A stretch of DNA of 15,439 nucleotides from an uncultured Oscillochloris sp. (GTDB lineage: Bacteria; Chloroflexota; Chloroflexia; Chloroflexales; Chloroflexaceae). Under the pieces are notes generated by a model. The model had not been told where the DNA came from. It was given only the letters and a program-made list of their open reading frames with translations, and did not search any database. The DNA lies in the NCBI GenBank assembly GCA_903920315.1, contig CAIXLU010000243.1, positions 1-15,439 of the forward strand. The letters run 5' to 3'. A program made the translations under genes and the position numbers. Positions 3,016-11,582 of the stretch are shown here, one piece after another. The first letter of the stretch is position 1, and every line of letters begins with the position of its first letter.

Positions 3016-3465
3016 ATGGATGACGCACAGATCTTCATCACTGTGGCCAGTCAGTCTGGCTACGGTGCCGCAGCGGCGGCGACAGCCTTGGCCTGGGCGC
3101 GAAATCGCCTGAGCGTTGGAGGCGTCGTGCCGTCCCGGCTCTATATTTTTCGTGGGGCCAGCAACAGTAGCGAGGGCACAGGTCAGACACCAAGCTCGCC
3201 TAGCCGCCCGCGTGTACTACTGGCCTTCGCTAGTGCCGACGCAGCCCTAAGCTTTGCTCAGGCCAGCGGGATTGCCGCCGCCCCACGCCTCGCCGCCTTG
3301 AGTATCGAACAGTTGCTCACGGCGCTCATCCAGCGTCCCATGATCACTGCGCTGCTCGTGGCTGATGATGGTGATAGTCCGCATGAGGCGGGCCTGCCCG
3401 CCGGGTTGCGTATTGAACGTGCTGCGCTGCTCGATCAATTGCAGAGTGCAGAGTGCAGATTGTAG
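3016..3465 (+). CDS. Hypothetical protein (149 aa), Ala-rich, with no recognisable domain
   Basis: This is the only long ORF in the region and its GC is typical of coding sequence. The last 8 codons are encoded by the CAGAGT/CAGATTG heptamer array, and the RBS is weak. The ORF is bracketed by a 12-bp direct repeat (see findings). Confidence 0.35.
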   Translation: MDDAQIFITVASQSGYGAAAAATALAWARNRLSVGGVVPSRLYIFRGASNSSEGTGQTPSSPSRPRVLLAFASADAALSFAQASGIAAAPRLAALSIEQLLTALIQRPMITALLVADDGDSPHEAGLPAGLRIERAALLDQLQSAECRL

Positions 3466-3583
3466 ATTGGTCAGCGCATCATCAGTGACGTATTTTGCCG
3501 TAGGGCACGACGTGCTGCCCCTACGGCCATATCGTGTTTGTATCTACAATCTGCGATCATACAATCTGCAATCTACAATCTGG
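3441..3583. repeat. Composite symmetric repeat: a degenerate heptamer array (GCAGAGT GCAGAGT GCAGATT GTAGATT) at 3441-3469, a GC hairpin (CCGTAGGG / CCCTACGG, 8-bp stem) at 3498-3526, and the same heptamer family in inverted orientation with three direct TACAATCTG copies at 3545-3582
   Basis: This was read directly from the sequence. CAGATTGTAGATTG (3456-3469) is the exact reverse complement of CAATCTACAATCTG (3569-3582). TACAATCTG occurs at 3545, 3560 and 3574. Confidence 0.7.
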
Positions 3584-3592
3584 AGGGGTGCT

Positions 3593-4594
3593 ATGGGGAG
3601 CCGGTTCGATGAACTGCGGATCTTTGCGGGGAACGGGAACACCGCCCTTGCCCACGCGATATGCCACCGTATCAATGTGCCGCTTGGCGATGCGACGATT
3701 GTGAAGTTTAGTAATGAGAATATTTTTATTAAGCTGAATGAAAGCGTGCGCGAGAAGGATGTCTTTGTGGTGCAGTCGCTCTCGGCACCAAACCTGAGCG
3801 ACCGAATTATGGAACTGCTGATTATGATGGATGCCTGTAAGCGGGCCTCAGCAGGGCGGATTACGGCGGTCATCCCGTACTACGCCTACGGGCGCACCGA
3901 TAAACGCGATCAGCCGCGTGTGCCGATTACCGCTCGCTTGCTCGCTGATATGATCCAGGTCGCCGGTGCCCATCAGGTACTCACTATTGATCTGCACGCT
4001 GGGCAGATCCAGGGCTTCTTCAACATTCCCACCGACGAACTGACCGCGATGCACCTGCTGGTGCGCTACTTTGCTGACAAGGGGTGGGACGACACCATTG
4101 TTGTTTCGCCTGATGTCGGCTTTGCCAAGCGGGCGCGCAATTTTGCCGAGGCGCTCGGTGCGCCCCTGGCCATCGCCGAAAAGCGCCGTGTGCAGCACTT
4201 TGGCCGTAGCGACGGCGGCAGCCTGACCTCGCCCGAGATCTTGAATTTGATCGGCGATGTGGCTGGCAAGCGCTGCATCCTGGTGGATGACGAGATCGCC
4301 ACCGGCGGATCAATGCTTGAGGTCATCGGACTCCTTGAGCGCGAGGGTGCCCGCGAGATTTACGCGAGCTGTGTTCATGCGGTGTTGGCAGGCAACGCGG
4401 TTGAGCGCTTGCGCAACAGTTCGCTTAAAGAGTTGGTCACCACCGACACCCTGCCCCTGCCAGCGGAGAAGCGCTGGCCCGAACTGACGGTTCTTAGCGT
4501 GAGCCACCTGATCGCCGAGGTGATCCAGCGCATCCACAGCGGCATCTCGGTGGATACAATCTTCCAGCAGCGCAACCACCCGGCGCTGGGGTGA
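3593..4594 (+). CDS. prs: Ribose-phosphate pyrophosphokinase (PRPP synthetase)
   Basis: 333 aa starting at MGSRFDELRIFAGNGN; the long upstream extension in the ORF track is non-coding. It has hallmark Prs motifs: DLHAGQIQGFF, VVSPDVGFAKRARNFAE and the PRPP-binding loop ILVDDEIATGGSM. An RBS GGAGGGG lies 4-10 nt upstream. Confidence 0.92.
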   Translation: MGSRFDELRIFAGNGNTALAHAICHRINVPLGDATIVKFSNENIFIKLNESVREKDVFVVQSLSAPNLSDRIMELLIMMDACKRASAGRITAVIPYYAYGRTDKRDQPRVPITARLLADMIQVAGAHQVLTIDLHAGQIQGFFNIPTDELTAMHLLVRYFADKGWDDTIVVSPDVGFAKRARNFAEALGAPLAIAEKRRVQHFGRSDGGSLTSPEILNLIGDVAGKRCILVDDEIATGGSMLEVIGLLEREGAREIYASCVHAVLAGNAVERLRNSSLKELVTTDTLPLPAEKRWPELTVLSVSHLIAEVIQRIHSGISVDTIFQQRNHPALG

Positions 4595-4601
4595 TGTGAG
4601 A

Positions 4602-4660
4602 ATAGCCGATAGCCGATAGCCGATAGCCGATAGCCGATAGCCGATAGCCGATAGCCGATA
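4602..4660 (+). repeat. Heptamer short tandem repeat (ATAGCCG) x 8.4, immediately after the prs stop codon
   Basis: Eight perfect tandem units plus a partial ATA are visible. The array is preceded by GGTGATGTGAGA, which contains the prs TGA stop codon. Confidence 0.9.
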
Positions 4661-4661
4661 C

Positions 4662-4747
4662 AGCAATCCTCTTGGATCCGTGAAGGAGAGTCAAGGCTTC
4701 AGCCGACTAAAGCCTTGACTCCCCTTCACGGATCCAAGAGGATTGCT
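4662..4747. repeat. Very long hairpin / inverted repeat with two 38-nt arms (1 mismatch) and a 10-nt loop CAGCCGACTA
   Basis: The left arm AGCAATCCTCTTGGATCCGTGAAGGAGAGTCAAGGCTT (4662-4699) is the reverse complement of the right arm (4710-4747) except for one position. No T-tract follows it. Confidence 0.85.
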
Positions 4748-4866
4748 ATACCAACAGGCGGTGATGATTCTTCCCCATGTGTTCGTAATAAGCGTATACT
4801 ATACTCTGATCGTACCCACCGACCCACGTCGTTATTATCGGCTTTTGTCGTTGTGAGGAGAGATCT

Positions 4867-5538
4867 ATGAGCACACAGACCTGCCCAACATGTGATGCCC
4901 CTCTGCCCATAAACGCTCGCTTCTGCTCCAATTGCGGCCACGTCATTGCTCAGACCAATGAGACAGTATCACTCACCACACCGCAACCCCCAGTCCAGAC
5001 TTCGACCCCAAACCCGTATGCGGCGCAACCTCTTGCCCCCCAACAGCCCTACCCGCCACAACCAATGCAGGGACAGCAACCCTACGGTCAGCCGCAGCCC
5101 TACGGTCAGCCACAGCAGCCCTATGGTCAGCCGCAGCCCTACGGTCAGCCACAGCAGCCCTATGGCCAGCCGCAGCCCTATGGCCAGCCGCAGCCCTATG
5201 GCCAGCCGCAGCCCTACGGCCAGCCGCAGCCCTATGGCCAGCCGCAACAAATCAACGTAGTGGTCAATACAACGGCTCAGGCGGTGGCTCAGGGAAGCCC
5301 AATGGGCGTAGTCATTGTGAAGCAGAAGAGTGTTCTTGTCGCATTCCTGCTGACTTTCTTCTTCGGCCCCCTTGGTATCTTCTACGTGAATGTGGTCGGA
5401 GCGATCATCTTCACCCTCGTGACAATTGTCCTGGGCGTGTTAACATACGGTACCTTTAGCTTTTTGGCCTGGATTATCAGTATGATCTGGGGTGTTGTTG
5501 CCGCGTCGAACTACAACAAAAAGATCATCGTGCGCTGA
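4867..5538 (+). CDS. Zinc-ribbon domain / TM2-like domain membrane protein with a Pro-Gln-rich PYGQPQ repeat linker
   Basis: 223 aa. The N-terminus is a [19 protein letters not shown] zinc ribbon (CxxC-x14-CxxC). The central region has about 11 copies of (Q)PYGQPQ. The C-terminus has two TM helices with the TM2/NINE-like signature [22 protein letters not shown]...W. An RBS GAGGAG lies 6 nt upstream of the ATG. Confidence 0.6.
5080..5247. repeat. In-frame tandem 18-nt (sometimes 21-nt) repeat CCCTACGGTCAGCCGCAG (Q), about 9 units, encoding the PYGQPQ repeats
   Basis: This is a visible nucleotide-level tandem repeat with synonymous variation (TAC/TAT, GGT/GGC). Confidence 0.8.
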
Positions 5539-5565: not shown

Positions 5566-5609
5566 AAAAAACACGATGGAGGAGGCGAAGCCTCCTCCAT
5601 CGTGTTTTT
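5566..5609. terminator. Bidirectional rho-independent terminator between convergent genes
   Basis: AAAAAA + ACACGATGGAGGAGG (stem) + CGAAG (loop) + CCTCCTCCATCGTGT (stem) + TTTTT. The 15-bp perfect stem is flanked by an A-run on one side and a T-run on the other, so it can terminate transcripts from both the + gene ending at 5538 and the - gene ending at 5650. Confidence 0.85.
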
Positions 5610-7608: not shown

Positions 7609-7626
7609 ATAGCCGATAGCCGATAG
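7609..7626 (+). repeat. Heptamer repeat (ATAGCCG) x 2.6, 10 nt after the stop of the MetF-like gene
   Basis: AAAATAGCCGATAGCCGATAGTTGG. Same unit and orientation as the array at 4602. Confidence 0.8.
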
Positions 7627-7794
7627 TTGGGCATCAGCGACCATTTTCATTGGATGTTGTGCGCGAATCGCATGGACATCTGATGCACAAGACAAGATTC
7701 GCAGACGCTTTACAGTTCAGGCCAGAATGTGGCATCCTGATGCGCTCGACCTGAAACCTAAAACCTCGCACCTGAAACCTTGTCCAACAGCACT

Positions 7795-9099: not shown

Positions 9100-10042
9100 G
9101 CGTCAACCACCAGCCAATAACCGCCAGCCAACGGGCGGGGGTCGTCGTCCTGAGCGCAACGAAGGGCCGCTCTTCGATGAGGCGTTTTTGCGGCGTGTGG
9201 AGCGTATGAGCCTCCAGGCGCAGCGTACCCTGCGTGGCAATCCATCGAGCGGCGAACACCCGAGCCGTCACCAAATTCCGACCAGCATTTTTAGCGACCA
9301 CCGGCCCTACACCAGTGGCGACGATCTGCGTTATGTTGACTGGAATGCCTACGCTCGCCAGAACCATGTGTTGCTACGACTCGGTGAAGCCGAGCAGGAT
9401 GTGAATGTTCATCTCCTGCTTGACGCCTCGCGAAGTATGGCGGCGAGCAACTCGCAGCGCATGCGCCGCGCCCAGCAGCTTGTCGGTACACTTGGCTACC
9501 TGGCCCTGGCCCACAGTGATCGCCTCCAAATTGTGCCTTTTGGCTCAGCCGCCATGCCCGCCTTCGGGCCAACCCAGGGCAAGGCGCGCCTGATCGAGAT
9601 GCTGCGCTTTGTTGAGAACCTCACGCCACAGCCCGCAACCAGCCTGACCGCCGTGATCCGGCAGCACGCCGTGAGCCATCCCCGGGGTGGCCTGATGGTG
9701 ATCTGCTCTGACCTGCTTGCCCCCGATGGTCTGGCTGAGGCACTGGCGACCCTTGCCCCGCCCCGCTGGCAGGTTCTGGTGCTGCACATGCTCAGCCCCG
9801 ACGATCTCCAGCCCAGCACAGAGGGGCCGCTTGAACTAGAGGACAGTGAGACCGGCCAGCGCATGGAGATCATCCTGGACGACGAGACCCTGGCGGCATA
9901 CCGCAAGAGCGTGGCCCACTGGCGCGAGGGATTGGCCAAAGCCTGTACCCGCCGGGGTGCCACCTACGCCCCGATCATGAGCAACTGGCCCCTGGAACAG
10001 CAGGTGGTGCCCTACCTACGCTCCCGGCGGCTGTTGCATTAG
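9071..10042 (+). CDS. DUF58 family protein (vWA-fold, usually the partner of a MoxR AAA+ ATPase)
   Basis: 323 aa from ATG 9071. The ORF-track N-terminus from 8489 is a shadow frame inside the upstream gene. The DUF58 signature is present: LRRVERMSLQAQRTLRG...HPSRHQIPTSIFSDHRPYTSGDDLRYVDWNAYAR. A vWA MIDAS-like DASRS motif is also present (LLLDASRSMAAS). Confidence 0.75.
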   Translation: MWFKTIFRHRRQPPANNRQPTGGGRRPERNEGPLFDEAFLRRVERMSLQAQRTLRGNPSSGEHPSRHQIPTSIFSDHRPYTSGDDLRYVDWNAYARQNHVLLRLGEAEQDVNVHLLLDASRSMAASNSQRMRRAQQLVGTLGYLALAHSDRLQIVPFGSAAMPAFGPTQGKARLIEMLRFVENLTPQPATSLTAVIRQHAVSHPRGGLMVICSDLLAPDGLAEALATLAPPRWQVLVLHMLSPDDLQPSTEGPLELEDSETGQRMEIILDDETLAAYRKSVAHWREGLAKACTRRGATYAPIMSNWPLEQQVVPYLRSRRLLH

Positions 10043-10055
10043 GGCGGACGTGAAG

Positions 10056-10083
10056 ATAGCCGATAGCCGATAGCCGATAGCCG
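10056..10083 (+). repeat. Heptamer repeat (ATAGCCG) x 4, 13 nt after the DUF58 stop
   Basis: GACGTGAAG + 4 perfect units. It is flanked on both sides by CGGACGT (10045-10051 and 10082-10088). Confidence 0.85.
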
Positions 10084-11568: not shown

Positions 11569-11582
11569 ATAGCCGATAGCCG
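11569..11582 (+). repeat. Heptamer repeat (ATAGCCG) x 2, 2 nt after the stop codon, between convergent genes
   Basis: TTGATGTGA(stop)CA ATAGCCG ATAGCCG GG. The array lies in a 26-nt gap between the + gene ending at 11566 and the - gene ending at 11593. Confidence 0.75.

Follow-up and report, generated by a model that had tools for sequence, protein, structure and literature searches.

A long hairpin downstream of prs in an uncultured lake-dwelling Chloroflexales bacterium, a probable copy of a dispersed MITE-like inverted-repeat element

Genomic context of the hairpin

The window analyzed here (the whole 15,439-nt stretch of contig CAIXLU010000243.1) derives from an uncultured member of the Chloroflexales inhabiting stratified lakes. 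It harbors a prs gene encoding ribose-phosphate pyrophosphokinase (positions 3593–4594, plus strand), the product of which is most similar to metagenome proteins (92% identity) and to a protein of 'Oscillochloridaceae bacterium umkhey_bin13' (89%), followed by those of an 'Oscillochloris sp.' MAG (86%) and of Chloroflexus (83–84%). Downstream of prs lie a 100% perfect tandem array of 8.4 ATAGCCG heptamers (4602–4660, plus strand) and, abutting it, a 92-nt palindromic element (4659–4750, without assigned strand) that was delimited from its inverted repeat, its fold and the related copies identified elsewhere. The element starts 64 nt past the prs stop codon and would therefore belong to the 3' UTR of prs or else to read-through RNA. 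It ends 116 nt ahead of the start codon of a co-directional gene (4867–5538, plus strand) encoding a zinc-ribbon protein with a PYGQ-type repeat region, and a consensus scan of the interval between the hairpin and this gene returned no sigma-70-like promoter. Farther downstream, 800 nt from the hairpin, a bidirectional intrinsic terminator with a perfect 20-bp stem, a 3-nt loop and A5/T5 flanks (5567–5609) separates convergent genes. The presence of such a classical A5/T5 structure indicates that this organism does use U-tract terminators, and it is this site, called at about 5578–5598, and not the prs hairpin, that a terminator scan reports.

Repetitive sequence is also found upstream of prs (3438–3582), where (ATTGCAG)n and inverted (ATCTACA)n arrays form 23-nt arms with 87% complementarity that enclose a GC-rich hairpin at about 3498–3527. 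The (ATTGCAG)n array overlaps the end of a 149-aa open reading frame, and an ATTGCAG array occupies the equivalent place in two loci from relatives, L095 (position 9609) and L097 (position 251).

Geometry and stability of the hairpin

The initial annotation of this region described an inverted repeat at 4662–4747 with 38-nt arms, one mismatch and a 10-nt loop, and direct reading of the sequence bears this description out. A left arm, AGCAATCCTCTTGGATCCGTGAAGGAGAGTCAAGGCTT (4662–4699), and a right arm, AAGCCTTGACTCCCCTTCACGGATCCAAGAGGATTGCT (4710–4747), which differ by a single A/C mismatch, enclose the loop CAGCCGACTA (4700–4709), and GGATCC is present in both arms, as had been noted. A repeat search showed that the symmetry reaches farther, to 44-nt arms (4659–4702 and 4707–4750, plus strand) that are complementary at 41/44 positions (93%) around a 4-nt central spacer, CCGA (4703–4706, plus strand). 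The reverse complement of the right arm is TATAGCAATCCTCTTGGATCCGTGAAGGGGAGTCAAGGCTTTAG, corresponding to the A-type arm of the family described below, from which the left arm, also of A type, departs by three transitions (TAcAGC, GGaGAG and CTTcAG). Across the whole window, just three further inverted repeats of at least 16 nt were detected. No open reading frame of 60 aa or more starts inside the 92-nt element, which in size (such elements measure less than about 500 bp) and non-coding character is in keeping with a miniature inverted-repeat transposable element (MITE).

Fold prediction for the hairpin RNA yielded a minimum free energy of −72.4 kcal/mol, against −21.7 ± 3.2 kcal/mol for 200 dinucleotide shuffles (z = −15.7). 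Folded as DNA, the hairpin reaches −44.8 kcal/mol (z = −14.6), and the minus-strand RNA of a 111-nt segment containing it forms 50 consecutive pairs (−92.4 kcal/mol).

Dispersed copies of the element

The check suggested in the initial annotation, for a multi-copy hairpin, gave a positive answer across metagenomes. An exact arm 21-mer is found in JGI metagenomes not only at this locus (L011) but also in three unrelated contexts (L008, L009 and L010). Profile searches (nhmmer) with the whole element and with individual arms, covering 1.56 Mb of fetched loci, recovered all copies at E-values between 1e-8 and 1e-33. They also brought in others, some diverged and some halved or nested, in L012, L110, L111/L112 and, weakly, L108. 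Related elements are present at a minimum of seven other intergenic sites (L010/L099, L008, L009, L012, L110, L111/L112 and L108), all of them in the same or closely related uncultured Chloroflexales; about eight loci are known in total across metagenomes, and at least two of these (the window and L010/L099) come from shared samples.

The copies lie in ordinary housekeeping intergenic regions. The L010 copy, located between a rhodanese gene and a GGDEF gene, was found again at the same locus in ERZ27300037 (L099), and both samples (3300021602 and ERZ27300037) also contain the organism of the window. The L008 copy fills a 97-nt gap between two co-directional genes, a gap that recurs at the same length in a P0131 contig. 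L009 retains a single arm that overlaps the stop codon of a metallophosphoesterase gene. In L012, from the relative with 86% prs identity, half an element in diverged form precedes prs (3550–3616, E = 5e-10). L110 has a degenerate copy (1510–1636) and L111 (= L112) a further copy with a nested insert (9753–10000). In L108 (5133–5302) each arm has kept no more than its outer ~25 nt, and the GC-rich core between them is unrelated. Copies occupy 3', 5' and divergent intergenic positions, and their orientation with respect to the direction of the flanking genes is mixed, with two each way among the four best copies. The half element of L009 is followed by a palindrome rich in G/C runs (CTACCCCCCTAGCCCCCCGCAAGCGGGGGGGG ... 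CCCCCCCGCTTGCGGGGGGGCTAGGGGGGGTAG) and bracketed by ACTTTACA / TGTAAAGT (1890–2010 for the whole arrangement), which may be another inserted element replacing the right arm.

The 21-mer CTTGGATCCGTGAAGGNGAGTC has no match in 185,579 species-representative genomes, so that the species, or this region of its genome, must be absent from that set. It is also absent from IMG/VR, where searches with the inner stem with a free loop and with the arm core gave no match, and hence no sign of viral origin, and a distant blastn search of PLSDB plasmids with the 111-nt element returned nothing. The element profile likewise found nothing in about 1.25 Mb of sequence from more distant Chloroflexota or in 41 kb from the relatives with 92% and 89% prs identity, and rightward extension of the organism's contig gained 4.4 kb with no additional copy. 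In Rfam 15 there were no matches at gathering thresholds; a permissive search brought up miRNA-precursor models alone (31–55 bits, against thresholds of 77–110), as is expected of any long hairpin. The host lineage of the family is that of uncultured, lake-dwelling Chloroflexales resembling Oscillochloridaceae/Chloroflexaceae, and the element is a real, repeated and modular unit that is confined to intergenic sites and occurs in both orientations.

Arm types and modular architecture

Alignment of single arms resolves two arm types of ~44 nt that are joined tail to tail, the A arm given above and a B arm that reads, as reverse complement, TATAGCAATCCTATCCCGGTTGTGAAGGCGGAGTCAAGGCTT. Complete elements are about 90–100 bp long and have ends, TATAGCAATCC...GGATTGCTATA, that are conserved across copies in the manner of MITE terminal repeats. 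TA flanks most element ends, and TA(TA) is the sole recurrent flank; it is palindromic and inseparable from the terminal repeat, and the copies have no longer flank in common. The reverse complement of the window's right arm is identical to L009 at 43/44 positions, to L010 at 42/44 and to L008 at 41/44. L008 and L010 are A/B elements, the own arms of which are alike at 30/46 and 30/47 positions, respectively. Their right arms belong to the same asymmetric B type (40/47 identical) in different genomic contexts, and a B arm common to copies at different sites points to the copying of whole elements, not to the independent formation of hairpins. L110 and L111 are B/B-like.

In the consensus fold, an outer stem of 12 bp leads into an internal loop with about 9 nt per side and then into an inner stem of ~22 bp, such that A/B and B/B elements, the usual forms, are imperfect hairpins interrupted by this loop. 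Only the window copy is of the A/A form: here the left arm, too, is of A type, apart from the three transitions, and the pairing of two A arms closes the internal loop, producing a nearly perfect 44-bp palindrome. Single 44-nt arms are not palindromic (z = −0.6 and −1.2 against shuffles). Three pairs are changed on both sides in L111 (e.g., TCAAG/CTTGA to TCGAG/CTCGA), and the TCGAG variant is common to L110 and L111, which come from the same sample.

The loop had been reported to contain AGCCGA, a sequence related to the heptamer unit of the adjacent array. The motif is indeed present, and in its longer form (AGCCGAC / GTCGGCT) it recurs in the loops of the L008 and L009 copies. Since the ATAGCCG array is absent from the available sequence of these two loci, the motif was not borrowed from the array and constitutes a trait of the family.

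Possible mobility and possible long-term retention

The reading of the hairpin as a MITE-type element stands in so far as it concerns a multi-copy inverted-repeat family, and falls where it concerns a unit of array plus hairpin bounded by GGTGATG, to which we return below. Taken together, the data suggest that the hairpin is probably one copy of a lineage-specific, non-coding, dispersed inverted-repeat element akin to MITEs and to Correia, ERIC and RUP elements, which would form a 3' stem-loop when co-transcribed with prs. Its spread would have come about through transposition, with TA as a possible target site, or through some similar copying process. MITE-like signs of decay are apparent in the half copies of L009 and L012, in the termini-only copy of L108 and in the nested insert of L111.

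The L111 insert (9819–9954) is a 136-nt inverted repeat placed in the loop of the family member, with ends AATACTTTTC...GAAAAGTATT and CACGAAT-like repeats inside. An 11-nt direct repeat on either side, CGGCTAAAGCC, looks like a fresh target duplication, and this nested arrangement indicates that small elements do insert in these genomes.

No empty site was identified for the family itself; every contig spanning the prs 3' region carries the element. Other species lack it after prs, but their gene order differs too, and they do not provide clean empty sites; the prs loci of the closest clusters (P0001–P0004) show no synteny after prs, and in the neighborhoods of L008 and L010 the L008 site was found to be filled in a relative as well. 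The fetched flanks of the copies contain no transposase, and among the fetched loci there was no autonomous IS sharing the ends of the element. The correspondence with MITEs is incomplete, comprising size, inverted repeats and dispersal over loci of several metagenomes, and not insertion polymorphism.

In L008 and L111, the copies sit in one and the same intergenic gap, flanked by orthologs with products that are only 73%, 69% and 66% identical, and each copy carries its own species' inner-stem variant (TCAAG vs TCGAG). A site filled in both loci speaks for prolonged retention, perhaps accompanied by concerted evolution, or for insertion into that place more than once, and against recent hopping. 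The same observation is one argument for a different view of the family, according to which the hairpin is a vertically inherited, non-mobile cis-acting RNA structure kept by selection, and its copies are old functional duplicates. The level of identity between the flanking products (66–73%) would accord with such inheritance, as would the preservation of the outer stem, internal loop and inner stem with three pairs changed on both sides. However, terminal inverted repeats, or the concerted evolution of a repeat family, would be just as likely to show changes on both sides, and the TCGAG variant comes from two loci of one sample. The view draws further on the element end, which supplies a Shine-Dalgarno sequence (AGGA-N7-ATG) directly ahead of a start codon in L111 and L108 and a weaker one in L008. 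Against it, the copies are found in both orientations and at 3', 5' and divergent positions, and half and core-replaced copies exist. The three arm mismatches of the window copy, which are A.C on the plus strand and all G.U on the minus strand, are a further point in its favor, but the odds of three out of three mismatches being G.U on one strand are about 1 in 4. Strand preference by fold is, moreover, inconsistent: the window copy favors the minus strand, but L008 and L010 have opposite preferences, and the G.U pairs are for this reason not taken as an indicator of strand. Finally, no Rfam family corresponds to the element, the sub-threshold miRNA-precursor look-alikes being all that was returned. 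We consider unlikely, though not negligible, a vertically inherited structure of this kind, which might be an operon-internal or 3' stabilizer, an RNase III processing site or a means of translational control.

Hairpins at gene ends and start codons

In relatives with 83–92% prs identity the element is absent after prs, and an unrelated hairpin lies there in five of the six, including a stem of 23 perfect base pairs in L095 (z = −9.4) and, in L097, one of 30 bp built from inverted heptamer arrays (z = −12.4). Stem-loops are thus common at this place in the lineage, in line with a general requirement, or tolerance, for such a structure at the 3' end. Under the dispersed-element reading preferred here, the window copy would be co-transcribed with the prs 3' region and form a stable 3' stem-loop, the stem of which may bar 3'→5' exonucleases, stall the polymerase or, with its 38–44 bp of near-perfect duplex, act as an RNase III substrate. 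Our best estimate is that the inserted element would serve, or at least be tolerated, as the prs 3' stem-loop. The second reading offered in the initial annotation, a processing or protective 3' stem-loop of the prs transcript, agrees with where the hairpin lies.

Like an intrinsic terminator, the hairpin is a stable stem-loop shortly past a stop codon; unlike one, it has a stem of 38–44 bp, as opposed to about 5–15 bp, and no U-tract on either strand. Both the excessive stem length and the missing U-tract had been pointed out in the initial annotation, and both are borne out by the sequence, no T-run being present after the stem on either strand. As the genome uses a textbook terminator nearby, the lack of a U-tract implies that the hairpin is not a classical terminator. 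It is very improbable that the structure evolved in place, outside any repeat family, as a locus-specific terminator or protective prs 3' stem-loop. Its start at 64 nt past the prs stop codon, the hairpins found after prs in relatives and the extreme stability of the stem would all suit such an origin, but the same sequence, at 41–43/44 nt per arm, stands beside unrelated genes, and the 44-bp stem lies far beyond the range of terminator stems, has no U-tract and escapes the terminator scan that calls the site at about 5580–5600. The paralogous copies refute an origin in place, whereas a terminator-like effect of the inserted element is possible.

At the other end of genes, a terminal arm of the element ends exactly at a start codon in L111 (9990–10003) and L108 (5131–5144, minus strand), in both cases as AGGA-N7-ATG, and the same arrangement is seen in L008 (2060–2075) with a weaker AAGA. 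In ending at start codons, the arms supply an apparent ribosome-binding site that lies inside the outer stem. These arm ends at three loci, together with the orthologous retention accompanied by two-arm changes and with the hairpins after prs in five of six relatives, are the grounds for a broader reading in which the family would not be selfish DNA but a lineage-specific, selectively maintained hairpin module at gene boundaries that, along with inverted heptamer arrays, shapes transcripts. We hold this broader reading to be decidedly unlikely. Possible uses of such a module would include 3'-end formation without U-tracts, RNase III processing and the masking of the Shine-Dalgarno sequence in the terminal AGGATTGCTAT.

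Heptamer arrays, contig breaks and other repeats

ATAGCCG arrays occur four times within 7 kb of the window (4602–4660, 7609–7626, 10055–10083 and 11569–11582), all on the plus strand, and each begins 2–12 nt past the stop codon of a plus-strand gene. The arrays at 7609, 10055 and 11569 are not accompanied by a hairpin. The array following prs has 8 or 9 units depending on the strain, whereas the hairpin is invariant. Other loci of close relatives, about 100 kb in all, contained no ATAGCCG array. A count of perfect heptamer arrays with at least 3 units gives about 11 for roughly 190 kb of the lineage, as compared to 1 in 1.25 Mb of distant Chloroflexota.

The initial annotation had combined the array and the hairpin into a single unit flanked by a direct repeat, GGTGATG. 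This heptamer is present at 4590–4596 and at 4760–4766, as would be expected if array and hairpin moved together and left a 7-bp target duplication at their borders. As a target duplication, however, the pair does not exceed chance, since about 5% of random pairs of 30-nt windows set 170 nt apart in the same stretch share a 7-mer or longer match, and the first GGTGATG is made up of the last prs codons and the stop codon (GGG TGA TG). Elsewhere in the family, copies lack both a neighboring ATAGCCG array and flanking repeats of this sort, which speaks against the array and hairpin being one unit. With three ATAGCCG arrays standing alone in the window, and with an array length that varies between strains next to a constant hairpin, a composite mobile unit is extremely improbable. 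The array and the hairpin are therefore neighbors, and the array lies outside the repeated unit.

Inverted heptamer arrays were also seen to build hairpins at gene ends on their own. In the relative with 92% prs identity, (ATGTTGA)4 and its complement form the 30-bp stem mentioned above directly after prs (L097, 1384–1450; z = −12.4), and in L010 (1571–1670, equivalent to L099 4099–4154) an array of (GGATTGT)8.9 is followed by (CAATCCA)4.7 between convergent genes.

The 92-nt element is base-for-base identical in contigs of several lake metagenomes from both ENA and JGI (L001–L004 and L011). Contigs from three assemblies end within the array or the hairpin (L005, L006 and L007), in a manner compatible with a repeated sequence but not proof of one. 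Although such contig ends are what a palindromic chimera made by the assembler might leave behind, the probability of an artefact is practically nil, because the identical hairpin is internal to contigs with unique flanks on both sides in different samples (L001–L004), in independent assemblies.

Other repeats are apparent in the lineage. A second family of about 130 nt, better conserved than the first, has ends (GA)ACCTTGTCTAAGG and a core GTAGTAGGGGCTTTAGCCCC, with copies in L012 (5006–5140), L110 (1677–1804 and 1–51), L093 (3730–3772) and L107 (2806–2847). Although they come from different organisms, the copies in L012 and L110 share 93% identity across 128 nt, and the L012 copy sits just after prs. 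By eye, positions 7690–7790 of the window (minus strand) resemble an adjacent element at L012 4930–5003, a resemblance that blastn-short did not confirm. Contigs of several assemblies (L092 and L094) stop within a few hundred bases of the right end of the window, at about 15400, and a GGDEF paralogue (P0123) is found on contigs of about 2 kb in many samples (L102–L106), suggesting that further assembly-breaking repeats exist.

Comparison with known repeat families

Correia elements (CREE) have ends that start with TATAG, and variants of their left and right repeats combine into subtypes. The family described here shares many traits with these Correia/CREE/NEMIS elements of Neisseria, which are also non-coding and intergenic, measure about 100–150 bp and have long terminal inverted repeats with TATAG ends. 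TA flanks are common to both, the subtypes of CREE are comparable to the A/A, A/B and B/B forms, and a long hairpin is expected upon co-transcription in either case. The two nevertheless belong to different phyla, and no similarity was recognized beyond the TATAG start, as judged without a CREE consensus. CREE number hundreds per genome, as opposed to about eight known loci here, and the IHF site, the creation of promoters and the TA duplication belong to the CREE side and are not demonstrated for the present family. Correia hairpins are bound or cut by RNase III, altering the expression of neighboring genes (PMC2649163). More generally, transcripts of MITEs such as Correia and SPRITE are established to form terminator-like or RNase III-sensitive hairpins (PMC2649163; PMC10969869), and 3' stem-loop effects have been proposed for MITEs at large (PMC10969869).

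Bacterial MITEs, including ERIC/IRU and RUP, have been reviewed (PMC10969869; PMC2229807). The present family resembles them in consisting of small, non-coding, intergenic imperfect palindromes that can yield terminator-like or regulatory RNA hairpins, and the nested insert of L111 parallels the BOX/RUP/SPRITE clusters of pneumococci. It differs in that no parent IS, clear target duplication or insertion polymorphism was found for it, and the conservation of one site between species is more reminiscent of ERIC than of an active MITE.

REP, BIME and REPIN sequences are also extragenic palindromic repeats located after genes, singly or as inverted pairs, and the combination of Y and Z units in BIMEs is similar to that of A and B arms. 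In contrast to REP units, which are in themselves imperfect palindromes of 20–40 nt, the 44-nt arms are not palindromic and end in TATAG instead of bearing a GTAG/CGTC tag. Copy number in the present family appears low, whereas REPINs have RAYT transposases and hundreds of copies; no RAYT gene was found in the fetched loci. Roles in termination and mRNA stabilization have been proposed for REP/BIME sequences (PMC3733652). A REP-unit model was rejected for the family on account of the single arms, given their lack of palindromic character (z = −0.6 and −1.2). An integron attC site was also discarded, as the ends are without the GTTRRRY core (RYYYAAC ... GTTRRRY), the neighbors are housekeeping genes and no integrase was seen.

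The neighboring ATAGCCG array has a counterpart in the STRR sequences of cyanobacteria, which are tandem 7-nt intergenic units present as several different units per genome. The similarity extends to the filamentous phototroph lineage of the host, and the differences to the phylum and the units themselves. In the lineage studied here, hairpins at gene ends are often made up of inverted arrays (L097, L010/L099 and window 3438–3582). A literature search on Chloroflexi MITEs or heptamer repeats retrieved nothing specific.

Discussion

The element is of a type already familiar among bacterial repeats and does not represent a new kind of system. Such elements are well documented in Neisseria, enterobacteria and pneumococci, so that the finding makes no more than a modest addition in terms of concepts. 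It does, however, add a small inverted-repeat family that is new for uncultured freshwater Chloroflexales, a group for which no published description was found, and the same lineage is seen to contain heptamer arrays as well as a second repeat of ~130 nt. These repeats explain the breaks of metagenome contigs at gene ends of this organism, and the variation of array length between strains makes the arrays possible strain markers. Beyond its interest as a repeat, a near-perfect 44-bp stem in the 3' UTR of a housekeeping gene offers a test case for how transcripts end or are processed without U-tracts outside the model phyla.
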